Of a DNA stretch of 7,907 nt, positions 8 to 7,907 are shown one piece after another. Position 1 is the first letter of the stretch, and each line of letters opens with the position of its first letter. The position numbers and the translations under genes are program-made. The notes under the pieces were generated by a model, which was given only the letters and a program-made list of their open reading frames with translations, was not told where the DNA came from and did no database searches. Origin of the DNA: Azolla caroliniana (lineage: Eukaryota; Plantae; Polypodiophyta); assembly GCA_043228905.1 (NCBI GenBank), contig JBHGNT010001471.1, forward strand, positions 1 to 7,907, written 5' to 3'.

Positions 8-68
8 GTTAAACGACTAAGTCCAACTAAAATAGGAGCCGTTTGGTTGGACAACCCTTAGTGGTTCC
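8..68 (+). promoter_or_regulatory. Candidate gag/pol -1 ribosomal frameshift signal (G TTA AAC plus stem-loop/pseudoknot)
   Basis: Heptamer GTTAAAC at 8-14, then a 6-nt spacer and an 11-bp stem (21-31/42-52, one G-U). Loop bases GGAGCC (35-40) can pair with GGTTCC (63-68). The likely gag stop TAG is at 33-35. Confidence 0.55.
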
Positions 69-92
69 ATTCCCTCTAAGCAAGTTAGCAAT

Positions 93-461
93 GTGTTCTT
101 AGCCCAAGTCATGGTTAGTACTAAACGTACCCCTCCAGTACACGTCTTAGCACTTTTAGATTCCGGAGCCAATTCTTGTTTCATGGATCAGAATTTTGCC
201 CAAGCTTCTCAGATATCCTTAAGAAAACTTCCTTGCCCCGCATCTGTAGTAGTCATTGATGGTAGTCCCATTGCTTCTGGGAATATCGTAGAAGAGTCAC
301 AACCCATTCAGGTTGTCCTTAGAGATAGCTTTGTGTGTGTGGTATCATTTAATATAATTAGTAGTCTAGAGCACCCCATTGTCCTGGGATTACCTTGGTT
401 TGAATTACATGATCCAGACATGGATTGGAGAACAAGAGAAGTTTGGTATCGACAACCCTGA
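93..461 (+). pseudogene. pol: pol: retropepsin aspartic protease domain
   Basis: Catalytic motif ALLDSGANSCFMD and C-terminal IVLGLPWFELHDPDMDW. The same frame continues past stops into the RT linker (...HRPYDCPIDLQPGKEPPWGPIY). Confidence 0.92.
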
Positions 462-689
462 GAATCTACTCATCGAGTTTCGACCATTTCGCTACATCAA
501 TTATGTGAAGAAGGACGCAAGGAGTCAATGTTTCTATTTGCAATATGATGCAAGGAATCCTTAGTTCAACTTCCCGCGAAATATCATCCTTATGCCGATG
601 TATTTGACAAGGTAAAAGCCGGTACTTTTCTTCATCATCGTCCCTATGATTGTCCCATCGATTTACAACCAGGAAAAGAGCCACCTTGG

Positions 690-1300
690 GGACCTATATA
701 CAACTTGTCACCAACCGAGTTAGAAGTCCTTCGAGCCTACATAGAAGAGAATTTGGCAAGCGGGTTTATTCATCATTCGAAATCTCCGGTCGAATCACCC
801 ATTTTCTTTGTCAAGAAGAAAGATGGATCACTTCGTCTCGTCGTTGATTACCGCGGCTTGAATAAGGTCACCATCAGGAATAGGTATGCACTTCCCCTTA
901 TATCAAGTCTTTTAGAACGTGTAAATATTGCCAAGCTTTTTACAAAAATCGACCTATGAGGAGCATATAACCTCGTGCGGATCTGACCGGGAGACGAATG
1001 GAAGACTACTTTTCGCACCCGATATGGGCACTTCGAGTATACCGTTATGCCATTCGGTCTAACCAATGCGCCCGAAGTCTTCTAGCACATGGCAAATGAT
1101 ATATTCAAAGACCTCTTGGATATCTATTTGATCATCTATCTGGATGATCTATTGATTTATTCGAAGACCCAAGAAGAGCATGATTCTCAATGTGTACTAT
1201 TAGTACTAAAATGACTCCGAGAGCATGGTCTGTATGCCAAACTAGAAGAATGTAGCTTTGACTGCAAGCAAGTGGAATTTCTAGGCTACGTCATCTCCTC
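690..1300 (+). pseudogene. pol: pol: reverse transcriptase domain (interrupted by stops)
   Basis: [68 protein letters not shown] at 1137-1148, and VEFLGY. Stops at 957, 984, 1083 and 1212. Confidence 0.95.
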
Positions 1301-1569
1301 AAAAGGCATCTCCATGGATCCAGCTAAAGTCAAAACTGTGCTAGAGTGGCAAACTCCACGTTCGTTACAAGATGTGCAATGTTTCCTTGGCTTTGCTAAC
1401 TTCTACGGCAAGTTTATACAAGATTACTCGAAGATTATTTTGCTTCTCACACAACCTACCAAGAAGGGTCAGTCATTTCTTTGGTCGAATGAAGCGGACA
1501 TGGCTTTTATGCATCTTAAGAAAGCCTTTACATCAGCTCCTATTCATGCTCATGTGGATACAAACAAAC

Positions 1570-2317
1570 CATTCATCATGGAGGCCGACGCATCGGATTT
1601 CGCCCTCGGTAGCATCCTTTCACAACAAGGAGATAAAGACAAGTTACATCCTGTGGCTTTCCACTCGGGCAAATTTGATGTTGCAGAAATCAACTACGAG
1701 ATACATGACAAGGAGTTATTAGCCATCATGGATTCGTTTGTGCAATGGTGGCACTTCTTAGAGGGCTCTCCTCATCAGGTCATCGTCTTCAATGATCACA
1801 AAAATCTTGCTTATTTCCAGAACGTTGTACTAAATCGACGGTAACAATCGGCAACGGTTTGAACCGAACCGAACCACGAAACTATGGTTTAACATCTTAA
1901 CGGTTTTAACGGTTTGGTTAGGTTTCAACAGTAAAAAACCGCGGTTTAAACGGTTTAACGGTTTTTTATTTATTTATTTATTTTACAAAATTGTTTTTAA
2001 ACAATCTTTTCATTTTTAGACCTTATTCTCACATTTTAGGAACATCTTAAAAATTAAAAATTTGACCTATGTTGAAAACCGAAACTGAACCATGAAACCG
2101 CAGTTTTTTCGGTTTAACAGTTTGAAAATTGTTTACCAGTTTCGTGGTTTGGTTCGGTTTGGTTCAAGTTTCAATTTGGACCCTCTCAAACCAAACCGAA
2201 CCATTGCCAATTGTTAATCGAAGGCAAGCTCAGTGAGCCCAATTCCTCACGCGTTTTGACTTCAAAATCACATATCGGTCGGGAAAGTAGCAAAGAAAAG
2301 CAGATGCTCTATCACGA
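1570..2317 (+). pseudogene. pol: pol: RNase H domain, split by MITE at 1842-2216
   Basis: MEADASDFALGSILSQ, NYEIHDKELLAI, DHKNL...LNRR | QAQ*AQFLTRFDFKITYRSGK*QRKADALSR. Removing the MITE and one TSD copy rejoins the frame exactly. Confidence 0.93.
1842..2216. mobile_element. Non-autonomous hAT-type DNA transposon (MITE), 375 bp
   Basis: 18-bp TIRs TAACAATCGGCAACGGTT (1842-1859) and AACCATTGCCAATTGTTA (2199-2216) match at 16/18. The 8-bp TSD ATCGACGG (1834-1841) / ATCGAAGG (2217-2224) matches at 7/8. It has an AT-rich core, subterminal AACCG/CGGTT repeats and no ORF. Confidence 0.9.
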
Positions 2318-2559
2318 TGCTCATATCTTGCACCTTGTCCTGGTGATCCAACATTTGATAATCAAAAGCAGGTAATCTTGGGACCAACACGTTTGCACAC
2401 AATGCGGATTTTGCACACTCCACTGGATTCCAAGATTATGGATGCCATACGTGCCAACTTGAAGACGAACAATTTTGCTCAAGTCATTCTAACGCAAATT
2501 GATGCCTCTCGGGCATCCTGTTCCCAGTCTGAACAACCAGGTATGGACTACCGGCAATT

Positions 2560-3603
2560 TGAATATCATGATGGTTTATTATTCTTTAAAAAGCTCGTGT
2601 ATGTTCCCGATGGCTCTTGTCGCCTTCAAATCGCCCAAAATTGTCACAACACCCATACAACTGGACATTTCGGTAGTACTAAGACGTTGGATCTAGTTCG
2701 ACAATCTTTTTGGTGGCCCCACATGCGAGGTTTTGTCGACGACTACGTTCGAACCTATGATGCTTGTTGCTGAGCAAAGATGCCACGACATTATCCATAT
2801 GGCTTGTTGGAATCCTTACCAATTCCAAGTAAACTGTCGTAGTCCATTTGTCTTGATTTTATCACAAATTTTCCAGTCTCAAAGGTTAACCGTAGTTGAC
2901 CGATATGCTAAAATGGCACATTTTGTGCCTTGTACTAAGGCCATCACTAGTGAGGAAACTGCCGCCCGTATCATGCGTGAGGTATTTCGCCATCATAGCC
3001 TCCTAGACAGTATCATTAGTGACCGAGGACCTTAATTCGTCTCCAAAATTTGGAAACATCTCTTCAAGATGCTCAAGGTCTCTTGCAACCTCTCCTCCGG
3101 CTACCATCCCCAAACCGATGGGCAAGCAGAACGAACAAATCAAACATTGGACGTTATCAACAGGACTATTGGGCTGATATTCTCCACTTTTCTGAGTTTG
3201 CTTATAATAACGTTATTCACTCCTCGACTCGGGTCTCCCCATTTTACGCTTATATCGGTTCTCATCCTCGCTGGTTTGTTATCAACATTTCGGAGCTACC
3301 TACCAATCCTCGTGCCGAGGATCATTTGGAGAGGCTACACAAGATTCAAACGGATCATATGCTCAACACACACAAAAGACTTATGCAGATCGTCATCGAC
3401 TTCCCTCCTCTTTTGCCATCGGAGATCGAGTATGGCTCTTACGTCATCACATCAAGACTACTCGACCGTGCAACAAATTGGATTATCGACGACTCGATAC
3501 TTTCCGTATTACCGGCAAGGTTAATGATGTCATGTTCTGCCTTGATCTTCCTCCGCACCTTCAAATACATCTGGTCTTCCATAGTTCTCTTCTCGAACCT
3601 TAT
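2560..3603 (+). pseudogene. pol: pol: integrase (zinc finger, DDE core, GPY/F region), with frameshifting deletions
   Basis: HNTHTTGHFG...FWWPHM...VRTYDAC (first Cys changed to Tyr). Catalytic residues are LDF (D 2855), SDRG (D 3021) and YHPQTDGQAER (E 3129). Also EFAYNN and IHLVFHSSLLEPY. Frame changes occur near 2885 and 3150. Confidence 0.93.
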
Positions 3604-3788
3604 CAGGCCAACACTATTCCCGATTGTGTTACACCACCACCGCCCCTGCTTGGGTTGGACGCCGGCTCGGAGTATGAAGTTTCTGCCGTCGTCGACTCCA
3701 AGTTTGTTCGTAACAAGCTTTATTATTTGGTCGATTGGCTTGACTATAGTCCGAGCAAATGTACTTGGGAACCTGTCGAGCATGTCGC

Positions 3789-4292
3789 TGTTACCCGGAC
3801 AAAGGGGCGGTCGGTCAAGTGGAGAAGCGTCGGAGTCGGAAATGTCAGAGTTAGAGTCAGAGGCAAAGTCGGATCAATAAAGAGGATCGATGAGTCAACA
3901 TTTTGCCGAATATAATTAAAAACTGAAAATATAGTTAGTTACAGATTTTGTAATTCTTGCTGTTATGGCAATATGTTTCTTGATGAGGAAGTTCTTTCGG
4001 TTGCTTATAAAAGGAATTGAAGGCATTGTAAAAACTATCGTTTATTTTAGTAATATAAGTTTAGTTGTAGGAAATCTCAACGTGCAATTCGTTATTCTTC
4101 TAATCTATTTCCATCTTAATATAACTATATTACATAAGTAACGATCTCGATGTATGCATAACATCGATATTATTATAGTAACTTAATATTCATTCGTCTA
4201 ACCACAATCCATTGATGGAACGTTCGGTAAACAACGTTGGACTTATACGGTGTCGACAACATAGTCTATTGTTGCCCGGACAACACAGTATA
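3789..4292 (+). repeat. LTR-A (plus orientation), probably from a Tat/Ogre-like gypsy family; 3' end at 4285 or 4292
   Basis: TGTT start, TATAAAA at 4006-4012, end at ...GGACAACA (4285) or ...CAGTATA (4292), and a PBS shortly after. Confidence 0.6.
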
Positions 4293-4296
4293 ATTT

Positions 4297-4314
4297 TGGC
4301 ACGCCCGGTGGGAG
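4297..4314 (+). promoter_or_regulatory. Primer-binding site complementary to the 3' end of tRNA-Arg (probably UCU)
   Basis: TGGCACGCCCGGTGGGAG. Its reverse complement CTCCCACCGGGCGTG-CCA has the form of tRNA positions 59-76. TGGCACGCCC is the PBS type seen in plant Tat/Ogre elements. Confidence 0.8.
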
Positions 4315-4616
4315 TGTTCTTGGCTCCACCCCCCTCCCAAGGGGTTAAGTGAGAAGAAACTAGAGAGAGAAAGAAAGAGAGAGAGACAAAACAATGTTGA
4401 GAGGAAAACTTGTATTATCACTCATGTCCCCTATGGTGGGGTTATATAGGTACATTCCATGAGGGTTACAAATCAAGAACGTACAATGAGGCTTGTAGAT
4501 TAGTTATATAACCTTCTAACAACCTACCCATTATACATATTAATATACTCACACTTATGTGCACATCTGCACATACAATTACACATGACTACACACTTTC
4601 AATCCCACGGATAACA
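4315..4616 (-). repeat. LTR-B (minus orientation), 302 bp
   Basis: On the minus strand it reads TGTTATCC...CCTATATAACC (TATA 4448-4442)...AATACAAG...CT-rich tract...CCAAGAACA, which is a TGTT...AACA short-LTR layout. Confidence 0.6.
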
Positions 4617-4711
4617 GTCGCCAAGGCTCAGGATCTTCTTGCTGATTTCTAGCGACAGTATCGGGACAAACCTGATTCTCAATCAACGCCGACTCATAAC
4701 ACTCGTCGTTT

Positions 4712-4724
4712 GAAGGGGGGATAG
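4712..4724 (+). promoter_or_regulatory. Polypurine tract of chromovirus
   Basis: GAAGGGGGGATAG lies immediately before the LTR start and overlaps the last pol codons. Confidence 0.85.
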
Positions 4725-5175
4725 TATCATGATATGACTCGAACCCATGACCTTATGTTATATGGGTCGAGCTCTTGACCATTACACTATCTATTGTAAT
4801 ACGTAAGATATGTATTATTTTCATTTAAGTTTTATTATAGAAAAGTAATGTATATTCCAGATTTCTATGGAACATTCTAGAAGCTTCAAGACTACTCTTG
4901 AGAACACTATAAAAGGAGGCACAAGGCATTATTTCGAACCAAATTGTTTCAATGCCAGTCTTAAGCCTCCTAGTTATCTTGTACTTACTCTTCATATAAT
5001 ATATCATCTATTATCATCATTCTCTCCCTCTCTCGCTTGCTCTATCTCTCTCTCTCTCATTTTCTCTCTTCCTCTCTCGTGAGTGTTACGCAGTCTCATC
5101 CTTTTAGTACTAATCCTCATAGTACTTCCCTTCTCTAGTACTAATTCTCTCTCTGTTTTAGTACTATTCCTGACA
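4725..5175 (+). repeat. 3' LTR of chromovirus, 451 bp
   Basis: Follows the PPT. Starts TATCATG (inferred from TGTCATG) and ends CCTGACA, giving inverted termini. It has TATAAAA at 4908-4914 and a CT-rich tract at 5020-5080. No PBS follows; copia RT sequence begins at 5176. Confidence 0.85.
4731..4796 (-). promoter_or_regulatory. tRNA-like Pol III internal promoter relic (A box plus B box) in LTR U3
   Basis: On the minus strand, TAGTGTAATGG (4789-4779) and GTTCGAGTC (4744-4736) start 45 nt apart, as tRNA T8 and G53 do. AGGTC precedes the T arm. Confidence 0.55.
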
Positions 5176-5454
5176 GCCGAACTTGTACAACATATTCAAC
5201 ACATGGTGTCGCTGAGAGAGCAATATGCCGTCAGGGGTGTGGATCACTTCGATCCCGAGGAAGTAATGAAGGTCCCCATTTCCTTCATTTCGAATGCATT
5301 CGACAATTGGGACTTCACTCGGCCGATTTCAGCGAGTTTGAGTCCGGTGATGACTAGATCATCTACATATAACAAGATACATACCGAACCATCCGAACCA
5401 TTCTAGATGAACGGTGAAGAGTCGGACTTGGAGGCCGCAAACCCCATCTTACGC
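5176..5454 (-). pseudogene. pol: Ty1/copia reverse transcriptase fragment
   Basis: Minus-strand translation: RKMGFAASKSDSSPFI*NGSDGSVCILLYVDDLVITGLKLAEIGRVKSQLSNAFEMKEMG /frameshift at 5274-5277/ DLHYFLGIEVIHTPDGILLSQRHHVLNMLYKFG. YVDD is at 5369-5358. Confidence 0.93.
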
Positions 5455-6096
5455 TGTCGAGGTATTCCTCGCGGATGCGTGGAATGAGGCGGGACCTCGG
5501 GGGTCTTGTACCGAAGAGCAAGAGAGAAAGGAGAAGGGAACCCACTATGTGCGAGCGTAGATTCACAGGGACACGACCCTTCGACACAAAGACGCGAGTG
5601 GGACAGCAACACAGAGAGACACGAATGTATGTATGTATTAACAAAGACAAACAACAAGAACACGAAGTCGGTTACAACCGAACAGGCCGGCGAACAGATG
5701 CCGATGCCTGTTCGTAAACGCACAGAAAGGAAAGAGTAGGTTGGAGGTGTTGCCGGAAGCACTTGGGCATTCCTCAAAGCAGCGCGAGCCTCCCGAAAAC
5801 CTGCACAGAAAGCAGCCACGGAGTTGCGAGCCAGAGAGAGAGAGAAGCCTTCGCCCATAAACCGACAGCACTTCGTCCTCGACTCTCCGCGATCCCTTCC
5901 TCCTCCTCGTCTCCCTCCTTTTATAGGCAAGAAGGGAGCCGTTTCCTATTAGCTTCCTACCTACCGAATCTACCTACCTAGGATCTCTCATGTCCCTAAT
6001 TCTCTCCTATGTACAACACAAGGCGTAAGCGCATGAAGAGCCGGTTCCTATGCTCCGGCGCACCGATTCCGCTTGTGGACGGTTTTCTTCACGACA
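5455..6096 (-). repeat. 3' LTR of right-hand element, 642 bp
   Basis: Minus strand TGTCGTG...CTCGACA with 5-bp inverted termini. TATAAAA at 5925-5919. It is preceded by a PPT and abuts the copia RT at 5454. Confidence 0.87.
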
Positions 6097-6109
6097 TCCG
6101 CCCCCACCT
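6097..6109 (-). promoter_or_regulatory. Polypurine-rich tract
   Basis: AGGTGGGGGCGGA lies directly before the LTR-start TGTCGTG. Confidence 0.7.
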
Positions 6110-6169
6110 AACTGCGCATCCACCGGCATGCGCCAAATTGAGTTGGGACGGAGAAAACCGGTCCAGCCT

Positions 6170-6550
6170 TCATTCCCCGACCATCGGTTCTTCCTCGGTT
6201 TCGGATCGTTCGTCGTTCCGGTCCAGGTTAACCGGATCCGGCTCGTCGTCGTGACGCTTCTTGAACGCTTTGATCCGTTTCCCAGCTACCGGTATCGCCA
6301 TTCTCGTGCCGTCGAGTTCCGCCAGATGGTACGTCCCGTTGTCGTTGGCGCTTTGTACCACGTAAGGCCCGAACCACCTTCTTGCGAACTTCCGTGTCGC
6401 TCGGTGCTGGTTGTCGAGGTTGCTGTCGTAGACTAGCACCCAGTCGCCTTCCTCGATCTTCTTCGGTCGGAGCCGGTGCATCCGGTCGAACCGGGCTTTG
6501 TTCCTCGTCCTTGCCACCCGAAGCTTTTCCGCAGCCTGCTCCACGTCCTC
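6170..6550 (-). pseudogene. pol: Integrase C-terminal (GPY/F, SH3-like) remnant
   Basis: EDVEQAAEKLR...RFDRMHRLRPKKIEEGDWVLVYD...KFARRWFGPYVV...NGTYHLAELDG...VAGKRIKAF. An in-frame TAA just upstream marks the approximate deletion junction. Confidence 0.85.
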
Positions 6551-6731
6551 CGCTTATTTCCTCGTCCGGGCCGAGAACTCCGCACGCTCGAAGTCGCACT
6601 TCCGCCCTTGTCTTTTCTCGGCCAACGATGCCGACTATCATACACCCTCCGTTGTTGGAGAAGCAAAACTTCCTACCTATCGTACAGGGTTCCTTCGGTT
6701 TCGGTTCTATCGTACAATCGTGGGGTCTTTT

Positions 6732-6785
6732 CCGAGTGTCCGGGCTGTCTCGGCCCCACGCCTTGGCAACCCTCTCTAAAAATCC
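6732..6785 (-). promoter_or_regulatory. Candidate -1 frameshift signal after protease (G GAT TTT plus pseudoknot)
   Basis: The heptamer at 6785-6779 lies directly before the TAG stop. After a 6-nt spacer come stem 1 GGGTTG/CAGCCC and stem 2 CCGAG/CTCGG. The -1 frame stays open through the deletion junction. Confidence 0.55.
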
Positions 6786-7907
6786 TCCCGGTTCTCGCCA
6801 CCGAGGGATTCGCGGTTTCGCTCGTGGTTCGGCCGCACCGTCAGAAATTGGACCGAATGGCGCCCGTCCTGGCTTTTGACCCTCGCGTAGGCCGAACCGT
6901 TGTCCAGCACCTTGGTCTCCATTTGCGCCGCCGTGATGTATGGTTCCCCTAATATGACCGGGTGCGAGGACGTCTCCTGTACGGAGAAGTGCTGGTCAAT
7001 CTCGACGTCACCAATCTTGACTCGCACGTTCGGGCAGGCCCCGTGCAGTTCCTCGGTGGTGCGCGTCGCCGCCCGTATCTTCCACCTGTGCTTGGTGTTG
7101 AGCGGCCACTTTCGCTTCTTATAGAAGTCCATGGACATCAGGTTTATTTCCGAACCGTCGTCCACCAATGCCACCACCGGTTCCTGAACATCTCCGATCT
7201 CTATCGGGGTCTCCGTGGTCGCTCAGGCCCAGTGTGGCCTCGAATAGTGGCTCTCCGCCCACTCATCTTCCAACGCCAAGTCGTCGATGTGCGTCGTCCG
7301 CACCTCCACTGGCCTTTCCGGTTCCGTCTCCGTCGACAGCCTCTTCCGCTTCACCAAGTCCATAATGGAGTCGTGGAACTCCTTCTTAGCGATCCCTAGC
7401 ACCTCCCGCAATGACAGCTCCACTTTGCTGTCGAGGATCCGCTCTTCTAGGACCTTTCGTAGGTCCGTGGTCCTTTCTATTTCCGTCCCCAGTCGGTATC
7501 CGCCCTTCCTGGGGTTATCTTGCGCGTTGGACCCCCCGACATCGTTCCGTCGTTGCCCGAATCGGGTCTCGTATCGTTGTGAGGGCCCGGCCGCTCCGGC
7601 TTTCCCCACTCGTTTGTCTTCTACCAGAGCCTCGTAGTTCCGGCAGGCGGCCTCTACGAAGCCCGTCTTCTCCTCGACCGGGTCGCTCCACCCGGTTATT
7701 TCCCGGACCCGTCTCTCAGCGCGCTCCGTTTCATCTTTCCTTAGCCGTGCGCCGGCAAGACCTTCCAGCATTGCCGACCAGAATCCGTCTTTGCCCTCCT
7801 TTCGGGCCTCGCTGCCCCCGACCCGAATGCTGGCTGACGCCGAGTAGTGGATGGCCTCCACGTGTCGGGCTGCTGCCTCTTCCATCAATCTCTTCATTCC
7901 TCCTCGC
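6776..7907 (-). pseudogene. gag: gag C-terminal region plus aspartic protease, one frame with a single premature TGA (7225-7223)
   Basis: ORFs 7223..7897 and 6776..7177 share a frame (HWA*ATTETPIEIGDVQEPVVALVDDGSEINLMS...PVILGEPY). The stop is consistent with CGA>TGA. Confidence 0.85.

Follow-up and report, generated by a model that had tools for sequence, protein, structure and literature searches.

An antisense A-box/B-box module is a conserved, tRNA-like feature of LTRs in a chromovirus clade

The window analyzed in this study is a stretch of DNA of 7,907 nt that holds the 3′ LTR of a chromovirus. The first approximately 70 bases of this LTR form an antisense A-box/B-box pair at tRNA spacing. 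This raised the question of whether the pair is a real feature of the element, where it came from, and what it does at the tip of an LTR that it does not transcribe inward.

The window contains a dead Tcn1-type chromovirus, and its likeness to the SM-Tcn1 element was judged by eye. A broken Ty3/gypsy pol was identified on the plus strand from ORF pieces and Pfam, with Pfam matches to protease, RNase H, integrase zinc finger, SH3, and chromodomain. The parts of the element were as follows.

36–3672, plus strand: broken pol (protease, RT, RNase H, integrase, SH3) with many stops and frameshifts, from ORF pieces and Pfam
3673–3788, plus strand: first part of the integrase chromodomain (PF00385, E 6.5e-10), with the cage residues Y, W, Y present
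3789–4617, strand not assigned: nested LTR-type insertion that splits the chromodomain, with a 5-bp target duplication GTCGC
4623–4711, plus strand: second part of the chromodomain and end of pol, compared with the C-termini in the integrase alignment
4712–4724, plus strand: polypurine tract ahead of the LTR; the same tract precedes the LTR in relatives
4725–5175, plus strand: 3′ LTR of the chromovirus, 451 bp, ending in TGACA

The aromatic cage Y, W, Y was seen in the window ORF and in the integrase C-terminus alignment, and a homologue from a fern was 63% identical. The pol domains extend over 3.7 kb into the module-bearing LTR, so the carrier is not a short or non-autonomous element. The 3′ LTR aligned end to end with positions 5055–5499 of the sister locus L001 at 86.6% identity. 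The LTR start was placed at 4725; the terminal TG reads TA in the window copy, and A4726 is G in 94–100% of the depth in four sequencing runs. The LTR end was placed at 5175, past which the contigs diverged into heterogeneous loose ends. The 5′ LTR is missing from the window, and the self-priming and primer-site tests were done on relatives.

Other repeats were observed around this element. The insertion at 3789–4617 looks composite: an LTR-like part from 3789 to about 4286 (with a relative in L048, 72%), a tRNA-primer-like site near 4293–4312, and then an unrelated LTR-like part on the minus strand. A MITE-like insertion lies in pol at 1842–2216; by eye, it has inverted repeats at its ends, GAACC-type repeats inside, and what appears to be an 8-bp, hAT-like target duplication. 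Behind the LTR, positions 5176–5440 had high depth in four runs and were without a match in the fetched loci. On these grounds, the chromovirus likely lies inside another repeat. The minus strand from about 5440 to 7907 holds the remains of a further Ty3/gypsy element, rich in GC, with weak matches to DUF4100, protease, and SH3.

The boxes were scored against the consensus TRGYNNARYGG for the A box and GGTTCRANYC for the B box. A B-box consensus of GWTCRANNC is given in PMC4228148. The module in the window copy consisted of four parts.

4779–4789, minus strand: A box (tRNA positions 8–19), 0 mismatches to TRGYNNARYGG
4754–4778, minus strand: spacer made of a D-loop remnant and a decayed anticodon arm (positions 20–43), kept in length and free in sequence
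4749–4753, minus strand: variable-loop-like AGGTC (positions 44–48), between-family identity 82%
4736–4745, minus strand: B box (positions 52–61), 0 mismatches to GGTTCRANYC

The distance from A box to B box was 33 nt, and that from T8 to G53 was 45 nt. The initial annotation had read an A box, AGGTC, and a B box at 45-nt spacing on the minus strand, and this was confirmed, with both boxes at 0 mismatches. It had also described a degenerate T arm; the B box of that arm held, and the bases right after it did not, being peculiar to the window copy, since sister LTRs carry 5 more bases there. None of 60 dinucleotide shuffles, made from the first 140 bases of the LTR, contained an equally good pair. 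A narrow A-box pattern derived from the window copy occurred once in the window, against an expectation of 0.03. Neither ARAGORN nor Rfam (RF00005) called a tRNA in the window, and no run of T4 or longer was found within 200 nt downstream of the B box. In the window family, the B-box arm pairs with the spacer as a hairpin (z −3.2). The candidate explanation that the module is a mere palindrome of the LTR tip was rejected, because the hairpin is strong in the window family and not general.

The module was covered by contigs from sequencing runs of four organisms and was present in all runs examined. The summed depth over the LTR was about a million and that of the exact-match contig of the window copy was 36, neither of which is a copy number. 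The LTR is very abundant in several related organisms. Variant sites were counted at a threshold of at least 6% on the sister LTR L001 in the four runs, with one row of the count not shown here. The B box had 0/10 variable sites and positions 44–51 had 0/8; the A-box 3′ half had 1/5, the A-box 5′ half 5/6, the anticodon region 3/18, and the next U3 stretch 23/65. Another U3 block (0/30) and the LTR tip (0/16) were as invariant as the B box. Variation inside the family is therefore not enough by itself to set the boxes apart.

Related families were investigated by fetching relatives through the integrase C-terminus alignment, which avoided choosing loci by their boxes. This gave 166 relatives and, from them, 76 distinct loci. 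The LTR start was located in 64 of them and missing in 12, and 6 more had an LTR under 120 nt, which left 58 loci; L059 was left out for a doubtful LTR start, and L038 was included by hand. These 58 loci (LTR of at least 120 nt) and the window formed 25 clusters at 80% identity. With gaps of 20–50 allowed, the pair was found on the minus strand with at most 3 mismatches and a gap of 32–33 in 48 of the 58 loci and 18 of the 25 clusters. The plus strand of the same LTRs gave nothing better than 3 mismatches, and at most 2 of 60 shuffles matched the real pair for any passing cluster. A B box with at most 2 mismatches was present in 23/25 clusters. When the B box served as the sole anchor in these 23 clusters, an A box with at most 2 mismatches lay at gap 33 in 14 clusters and at gap 32 in 6, and every other gap from 15 to 60 gave an A box in at most 4. 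A gap of 32–33 is the value for a tRNA with a short variable loop.

The module was scattered through a 61-row clade plus L051 and L055, in a quick tree used for distribution only. Among the 10 failing loci, three (L046, L055, L076) look like eroded modules, four (L060, L064, L061, L068) have a B-like half at most, and in three (L038, L072, L074) no module was found in the LTR. All 48 passing loci come from one accession series, which accounts for 68 of the 76 loci; the module is thus seen in many families, but perhaps in few hosts. By eye, the module was absent from the LTR of SM-Tcn1 of Selaginella, as given in supplement S3 of PMC2864245, which indicates that it marks a sub-branch. The module model found no match in 25 distant loci (14 from genome contigs at 33–51% identity and 11 metagenome loci), several of whose contigs lack an LTR, and no relatives were found among viral contigs. 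Since 7 of the 25 clusters fail, SM-Tcn1 lacks the module, and the distant loci gave no match, self-priming chromoviruses can do without it. The initial annotation had named a copy-specific SINE fragment as the outcome that would undo its reading; this is not what was found, as the module is in 48/58 loci and in all runs. The module is a real, selected feature common to a whole clade or sub-branch.

Two further observations were made on the fetched loci. At positions 999–1022, within its LTR, L033 repeats part of the A-box half of the module in tandem. Fourteen contigs (L077–L090) from records of bacterial and archaeal genomes code for chromovirus-like integrase ends and are likely eukaryotic contamination.

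To place box conservation on a scale, 21 representatives (the 18 passing clusters plus L055, L076, and L044) were compared in 210 pairs. Pairwise identity at the four-fold synonymous sites of the integrase was 0.41 across the 21 families. The B-box core reached 0.98, a value owed partly to anchoring and to the choice of representatives. AGGTC, which was never an anchor, had an identity of 0.82, and the A-box 3′ half had 0.78. The degenerate A positions 12–13 (0.34), the acceptor side (0.35), and the anticodon arm (0.37) were low. G53, T55, C56, and A58 of the B box and G46 and T47 of AGGTC were present in 21/21 families. The A-box counts among the 21 families were 21 for R9, 20 for A14, 19 for T16, 18 for G18, and 20 for G19; position 10 was G in only 7/21 and was often T. 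In tRNA numbering, the invariant or nearly invariant columns of the 72-column alignment were A14, T16, G19, G46, T47, G53, T54, T55, C56, and A58. The B box lay 11–63 nt from the LTR end, and because this distance varies, the B box is not the integrase attachment site. The boxes, expected in the initial annotation to be better conserved than the rest of U3, were indeed far above synonymous sites and most of the neighboring U3. Purifying selection on the boxes and their spacing is therefore well supported by these sequence comparisons.

The RNA fold was not conserved. Of the cloverleaf cells, 49% were paired, compared with 46% in shuffles, with 36% in the acceptor, 61% in the D arm, 39.5% in the anticodon arm, and 68% in the T arm. 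These counts agree with the earlier statement that the acceptor and anticodon stems are not intact. The whole-structure score was reached by 3/500 shuffles, and relatedness alone can yield such a score. RNAalifold predicted no consensus pair, and the Levitt pair was consistent in 8/21. A hairpin between the spacer and T arm with z of −3 or lower, on either strand, was found in 4/18 clusters. A T4 run followed the B box inside the LTR in 6/18 clusters, a T5 run within 200 nt after the B box in 0/18, and a T4 run interrupted the module in 0/18. Upstream of plant tRNA genes the context is AT-rich with TATA and CAA (PMC11700998). Upstream of the A box, AT content was 64–92%, in a U3 that is AT-rich anyway, and CAA and TATA were at no fixed place in the 18 clusters.

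Among known promoter and gene features, the module thus has the B box and A box at tRNA spacing of a type 2 Pol III promoter, without an oligo-T terminator, and neither the four-arm cloverleaf nor the ARAGORN or Rfam gathering score of a tRNA gene. RF00005 matched the module of L010 at full length, at a sub-threshold 21.4 bits (E 0.025), in 1 of 20 loci. In a weak reverse test, a sequence-only model of the module matched one of the three real tRNA genes that the loci contain (E 0.048). A tRNA origin of the module is supported by its position-by-position match to tRNA numbering together with the sub-threshold RF00005 match. The initial annotation had suggested a tRNA-derived promoter or insulator; its tRNA origin finds support in these two matches, and its promoter or insulator role is a function that we infer.

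The TATA box and the likely transcription start of the element lie apart from the module in the LTR.

4908–4914, plus strand: TATA box for Pol II, on the inner side of the A box at a distance of 119 nt
4941–4952, plus strand: likely R start and self-primer, decayed in the window copy; by complementarity in relatives

Relatives with a located TATA box had it 114–213 nt further into the LTR than the A box. Of 20 junction rows, 16 showed complementarity over 10–12 nt between the bases that follow the 5′ LTR and a stretch 32–34 nt past the TATA box; the paired stretches fell into four sequence types that co-vary. L001 and L005 had a complement of 7 nt at the same place, and two further junction rows had nothing. 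No tRNA primer site was found behind the 5′ LTR of the relatives. This complementarity fits Tf1-type self-priming, which has been predicted for the Tcn1 clade (PMC6317226). In self-priming elements the module would not pair with a tRNA primer. In the L012 group, the self-primer sequence has changed and the U3 box has not, which weakens the ideas of tRNA pairing and of 5′–3′ pairing. The B box as a partner of the self-primer was rejected, as no covariation was found. The boxes lie antisense to pol and face outward from the LTR, so they are not placed to transcribe the RNA of the element. Given this orientation and the element's own TATA box, Pol III cannot make the genomic RNA from the boxes.

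Some related observations concern the region of the R start. At 4934–4943 and at the same place in many families, a motif like a reversed B-box core lies just ahead of the R start, and a motif of this type could fold with the self-primer. In SM-Tcn1, by eye, 15 bases from 2 nt behind the 5′ LTR complement a stretch about 30 nt after the TATA box; this is a self-priming signature, which the text of PMC2864245 says was not found.

A barrier role of TFIIIC is known from yeast and animals. In yeast, TFIIIC sites serve as barriers and insulators and block the passage of Pol II (PMC4228148). RLG1 of Physcomitrium, a chromodomain-bearing moss element, sits in heterochromatic islands, and steering of RLG1 to heterochromatin by the chromodomain has been suggested (PMC7466625). 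Against this background, we hold with evenly balanced confidence that the module is DNA selected for TFIIIC binding and likely serves as a barrier or an open-chromatin platform for the element's own Pol II promoter. Selection keeps the letters read by TFIIIC and their spacing, and not a fold or a defined 3′ end, which favors a DNA platform. The presence of a terminator inside the LTR in only 6/18 clusters likewise favors a binding platform over a defined small RNA. As a possible course of events, an ancestor would have captured a tRNA gene or a SINE head in U3. TFIIIC would bind the module and would place TFIIIB on the AT-rich inner side. In the 5′ LTR, the complex would sit between the insertion site and the promoter, and at this outer edge it might act as a barrier, a read-through block, or a nucleosome-free seed. 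The need for such shielding would arise if the chromodomain steers the elements into heterochromatin. Some antisense Pol III firing may occur as a by-product.

The platform reading has weak points of its own. The A-box 5′ half is loose (at position 10, and with 5/6 sites variable in the family), which is a point against it. Conservation also reaches AGGTC and the D-loop tail, beyond the textbook boxes, and the D and T stems are above background; these leave room for an RNA role. The main rival overall is a working antisense Pol III unit, whose RNA would run from near 4800 out through the LTR tip and regulate the element as a small-RNA trigger, in copy control, or as a decoy. Both boxes are kept at exact tRNA spacing, the module is free of T4 in 18/18 clusters, the upstream AT content is 64–92%, T4 follows the B box in 6/18, and the D and T stems persist in part, as such a unit would have it; foamy viruses, moreover, make Pol III RNAs from U3 (PMC3993851). 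However, 12/18 clusters have no terminator inside the LTR and none has T5, the CAA is unfixed, no fold is conserved, and the 3′ end of an RNA from the 5′ LTR would hang on flanking DNA. A working unit of this kind was judged unlikely. Another reading places the function in the sense RNA: U3 would pair with host tRNAs at their D and T loops, or with the 5′ end of the element itself, and so help strand transfer, dimerization, or packaging. The bipartite primer site of Ty3 and the HIV-1 U3-R motif are precedents for this. The sense strand complements conserved tRNA loops by construction, the reversed B box resembles a primer site in several families, and the spacer/T-arm hairpin folds in some. 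Yet the letters by which a particular tRNA would be matched vary freely, only 4/18 clusters have the hairpin at z −3 or below, the changed self-primer of the L012 group was not followed by the U3 box, and the elements lack a tRNA primer site and fit self-priming (PMC6317226). Such pairing appears improbable.

A role in integration was rated only a little higher, as distinctly unlikely. The boxes would mimic a tRNA gene as a landing pad for the element's own or foreign integrases, or would tether a TFIIIC-bound cDNA end. Tj1, a self-priming relative of Tf1, inserts just upstream of tRNA genes (PMC4600332), and the module is at the tip of the cDNA. Being a target, however, should harm the carrier. 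The nested insertion in the window lies in the chromodomain and not upstream of the A box, and no insertion was seen between A box and TATA box where the latter was located, a weak point because the contigs likely collapse many copies. The tRNA genes in L010 and L039 were rejected as a sign of targeting, since the elements there are truncated and 266 and 136 nt away. These genes (L010 128–201; L039 553–626 and 832–905) are real tRNA genes for Asp, Asn, and Thr, and the junctions are not LTR ends. The remaining reading is that the module is a neutral leftover from an ancient capture of a tRNA or SINE and persists by descent only. Loss or erosion of the module in 7/25 clusters and drift of the A-box 5′ half would be expected of a relic, but synonymous sites and stems stand at 0.35–0.41 while AGGTC is at 0.82 and the A-box 3′ half at 0.78. 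On these identities, the neutral-relic reading is largely refuted and was held to be very improbable.

The platform reading has a wider form, which we put forward tentatively and with somewhat less than even confidence. An autonomous chromovirus lineage may have domesticated a tRNA gene as an outward-facing TFIIIC boundary that insulates the element after chromodomain targeting and scatters Pol III-factor sites. A TFIIIC platform at the LTR edge would be a concrete answer to the open question of how transcription remains possible for elements that integrate into heterochromatin. If this is true, the module is a candidate mobile TFIIIC boundary in plants, and tRNA-type LTR boxes are extended from small non-autonomous TRIMs to protein-coding elements. 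In TRIMs the boxes are thought to be the promoter, whereas here their orientation rules out that they are the promoter of the element. Given its great abundance in several related organisms, the LTR could account for a major class of the Pol III-factor sites there, and such scattered sites could shape host chromatin domains.

No published account of autonomous plant chromoviruses whose LTRs carry antisense A and B boxes was found in a search that covered sources other than subscription journals. The nearest precedent is Helenus (TRIMp3; Kojima 2024), whose LTR holds a tRNA-derived sequence conserved around boxes A and B (PMC10886601). It is mostly not a functional tRNA, its function was deduced from conservation, and one family is in Selaginella (PMC10886601). 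Helenus is a non-autonomous TRIM of 311–1263 bp; it has a tRNA primer site, and its own RNA is proposed to be transcribed from the boxes (PMC10886601). In both cases, tRNA-derived A and B boxes lie inside the LTR; unlike Helenus, the chromovirus encodes pol, has a TATA box, and fits self-priming, and its boxes are antisense at the outer U3 tip. Cassandra and Ajax are 5S-derived, non-autonomous TRIMp3 elements, and Cassandra is found in land plants, where its transcription starts in the 5S part and copies the element (PMC10886601). Pol III promoter motifs kept in the LTR are common to these elements and the chromovirus, with theirs being of the 5S type. The analogy to Cassandra drawn in the initial annotation is therefore loose, as the carrier here is autonomous, Pol II-type, and self-priming, with antisense boxes; Helenus is closer. 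Not a few Repbase LTRs resemble part of a tRNA, and the analysis in PMC10886601 covers TRIMs below 1 kb. Since tRNA-like LTRs other than TRIMs fall outside that analysis, a Repbase entry for the chromovirus family may exist.

The chromovirus shares with the Tcn1 clade, of the Tf1/Sushi group, a chromodomain with an aromatic cage, the absence of a tRNA primer site, self-priming, LTRs of about 415–516 bp, and a pyrimidine-rich leader (PMC6317226, PMC2864245). The primer-site and R-start motifs of SM-Tcn1 are, by eye, those of the L012 group. In contrast, a tRNA-like U3 module is not mentioned in the available parts of PMC6317226 and PMC2864245. Foamy viruses are alike in having Pol III promoter elements in the U3 of an autonomous, Pol II-driven retroelement, and their cassettes make experimentally shown hairpin (microRNA) RNAs with terminators (PMC3993851). 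The chromovirus, by comparison, has no conserved hairpin or terminator and has a whole tRNA frame. The tDNA and ETC boundaries of budding yeast are TFIIIC sites that act without a needed product (PMC4228148). Those are fixed host loci, whereas the module is in a mobile plant LTR of very high copy, with TFIIIC binding predicted. Tj1 and Ty3 are Ty3/gypsy elements tied to the Pol III machinery, and Tj1 self-primes; they insert beside tRNA genes and are not described as box carriers in the available text (PMC4600332). Judged from its sequence, the module is a variant of the tRNA-box-bearing LTRs, carried here by a pol-encoding element, whereas the known TRIMs with tRNA or 5S boxes (Helenus, Cassandra, and Ajax) are all non-autonomous.
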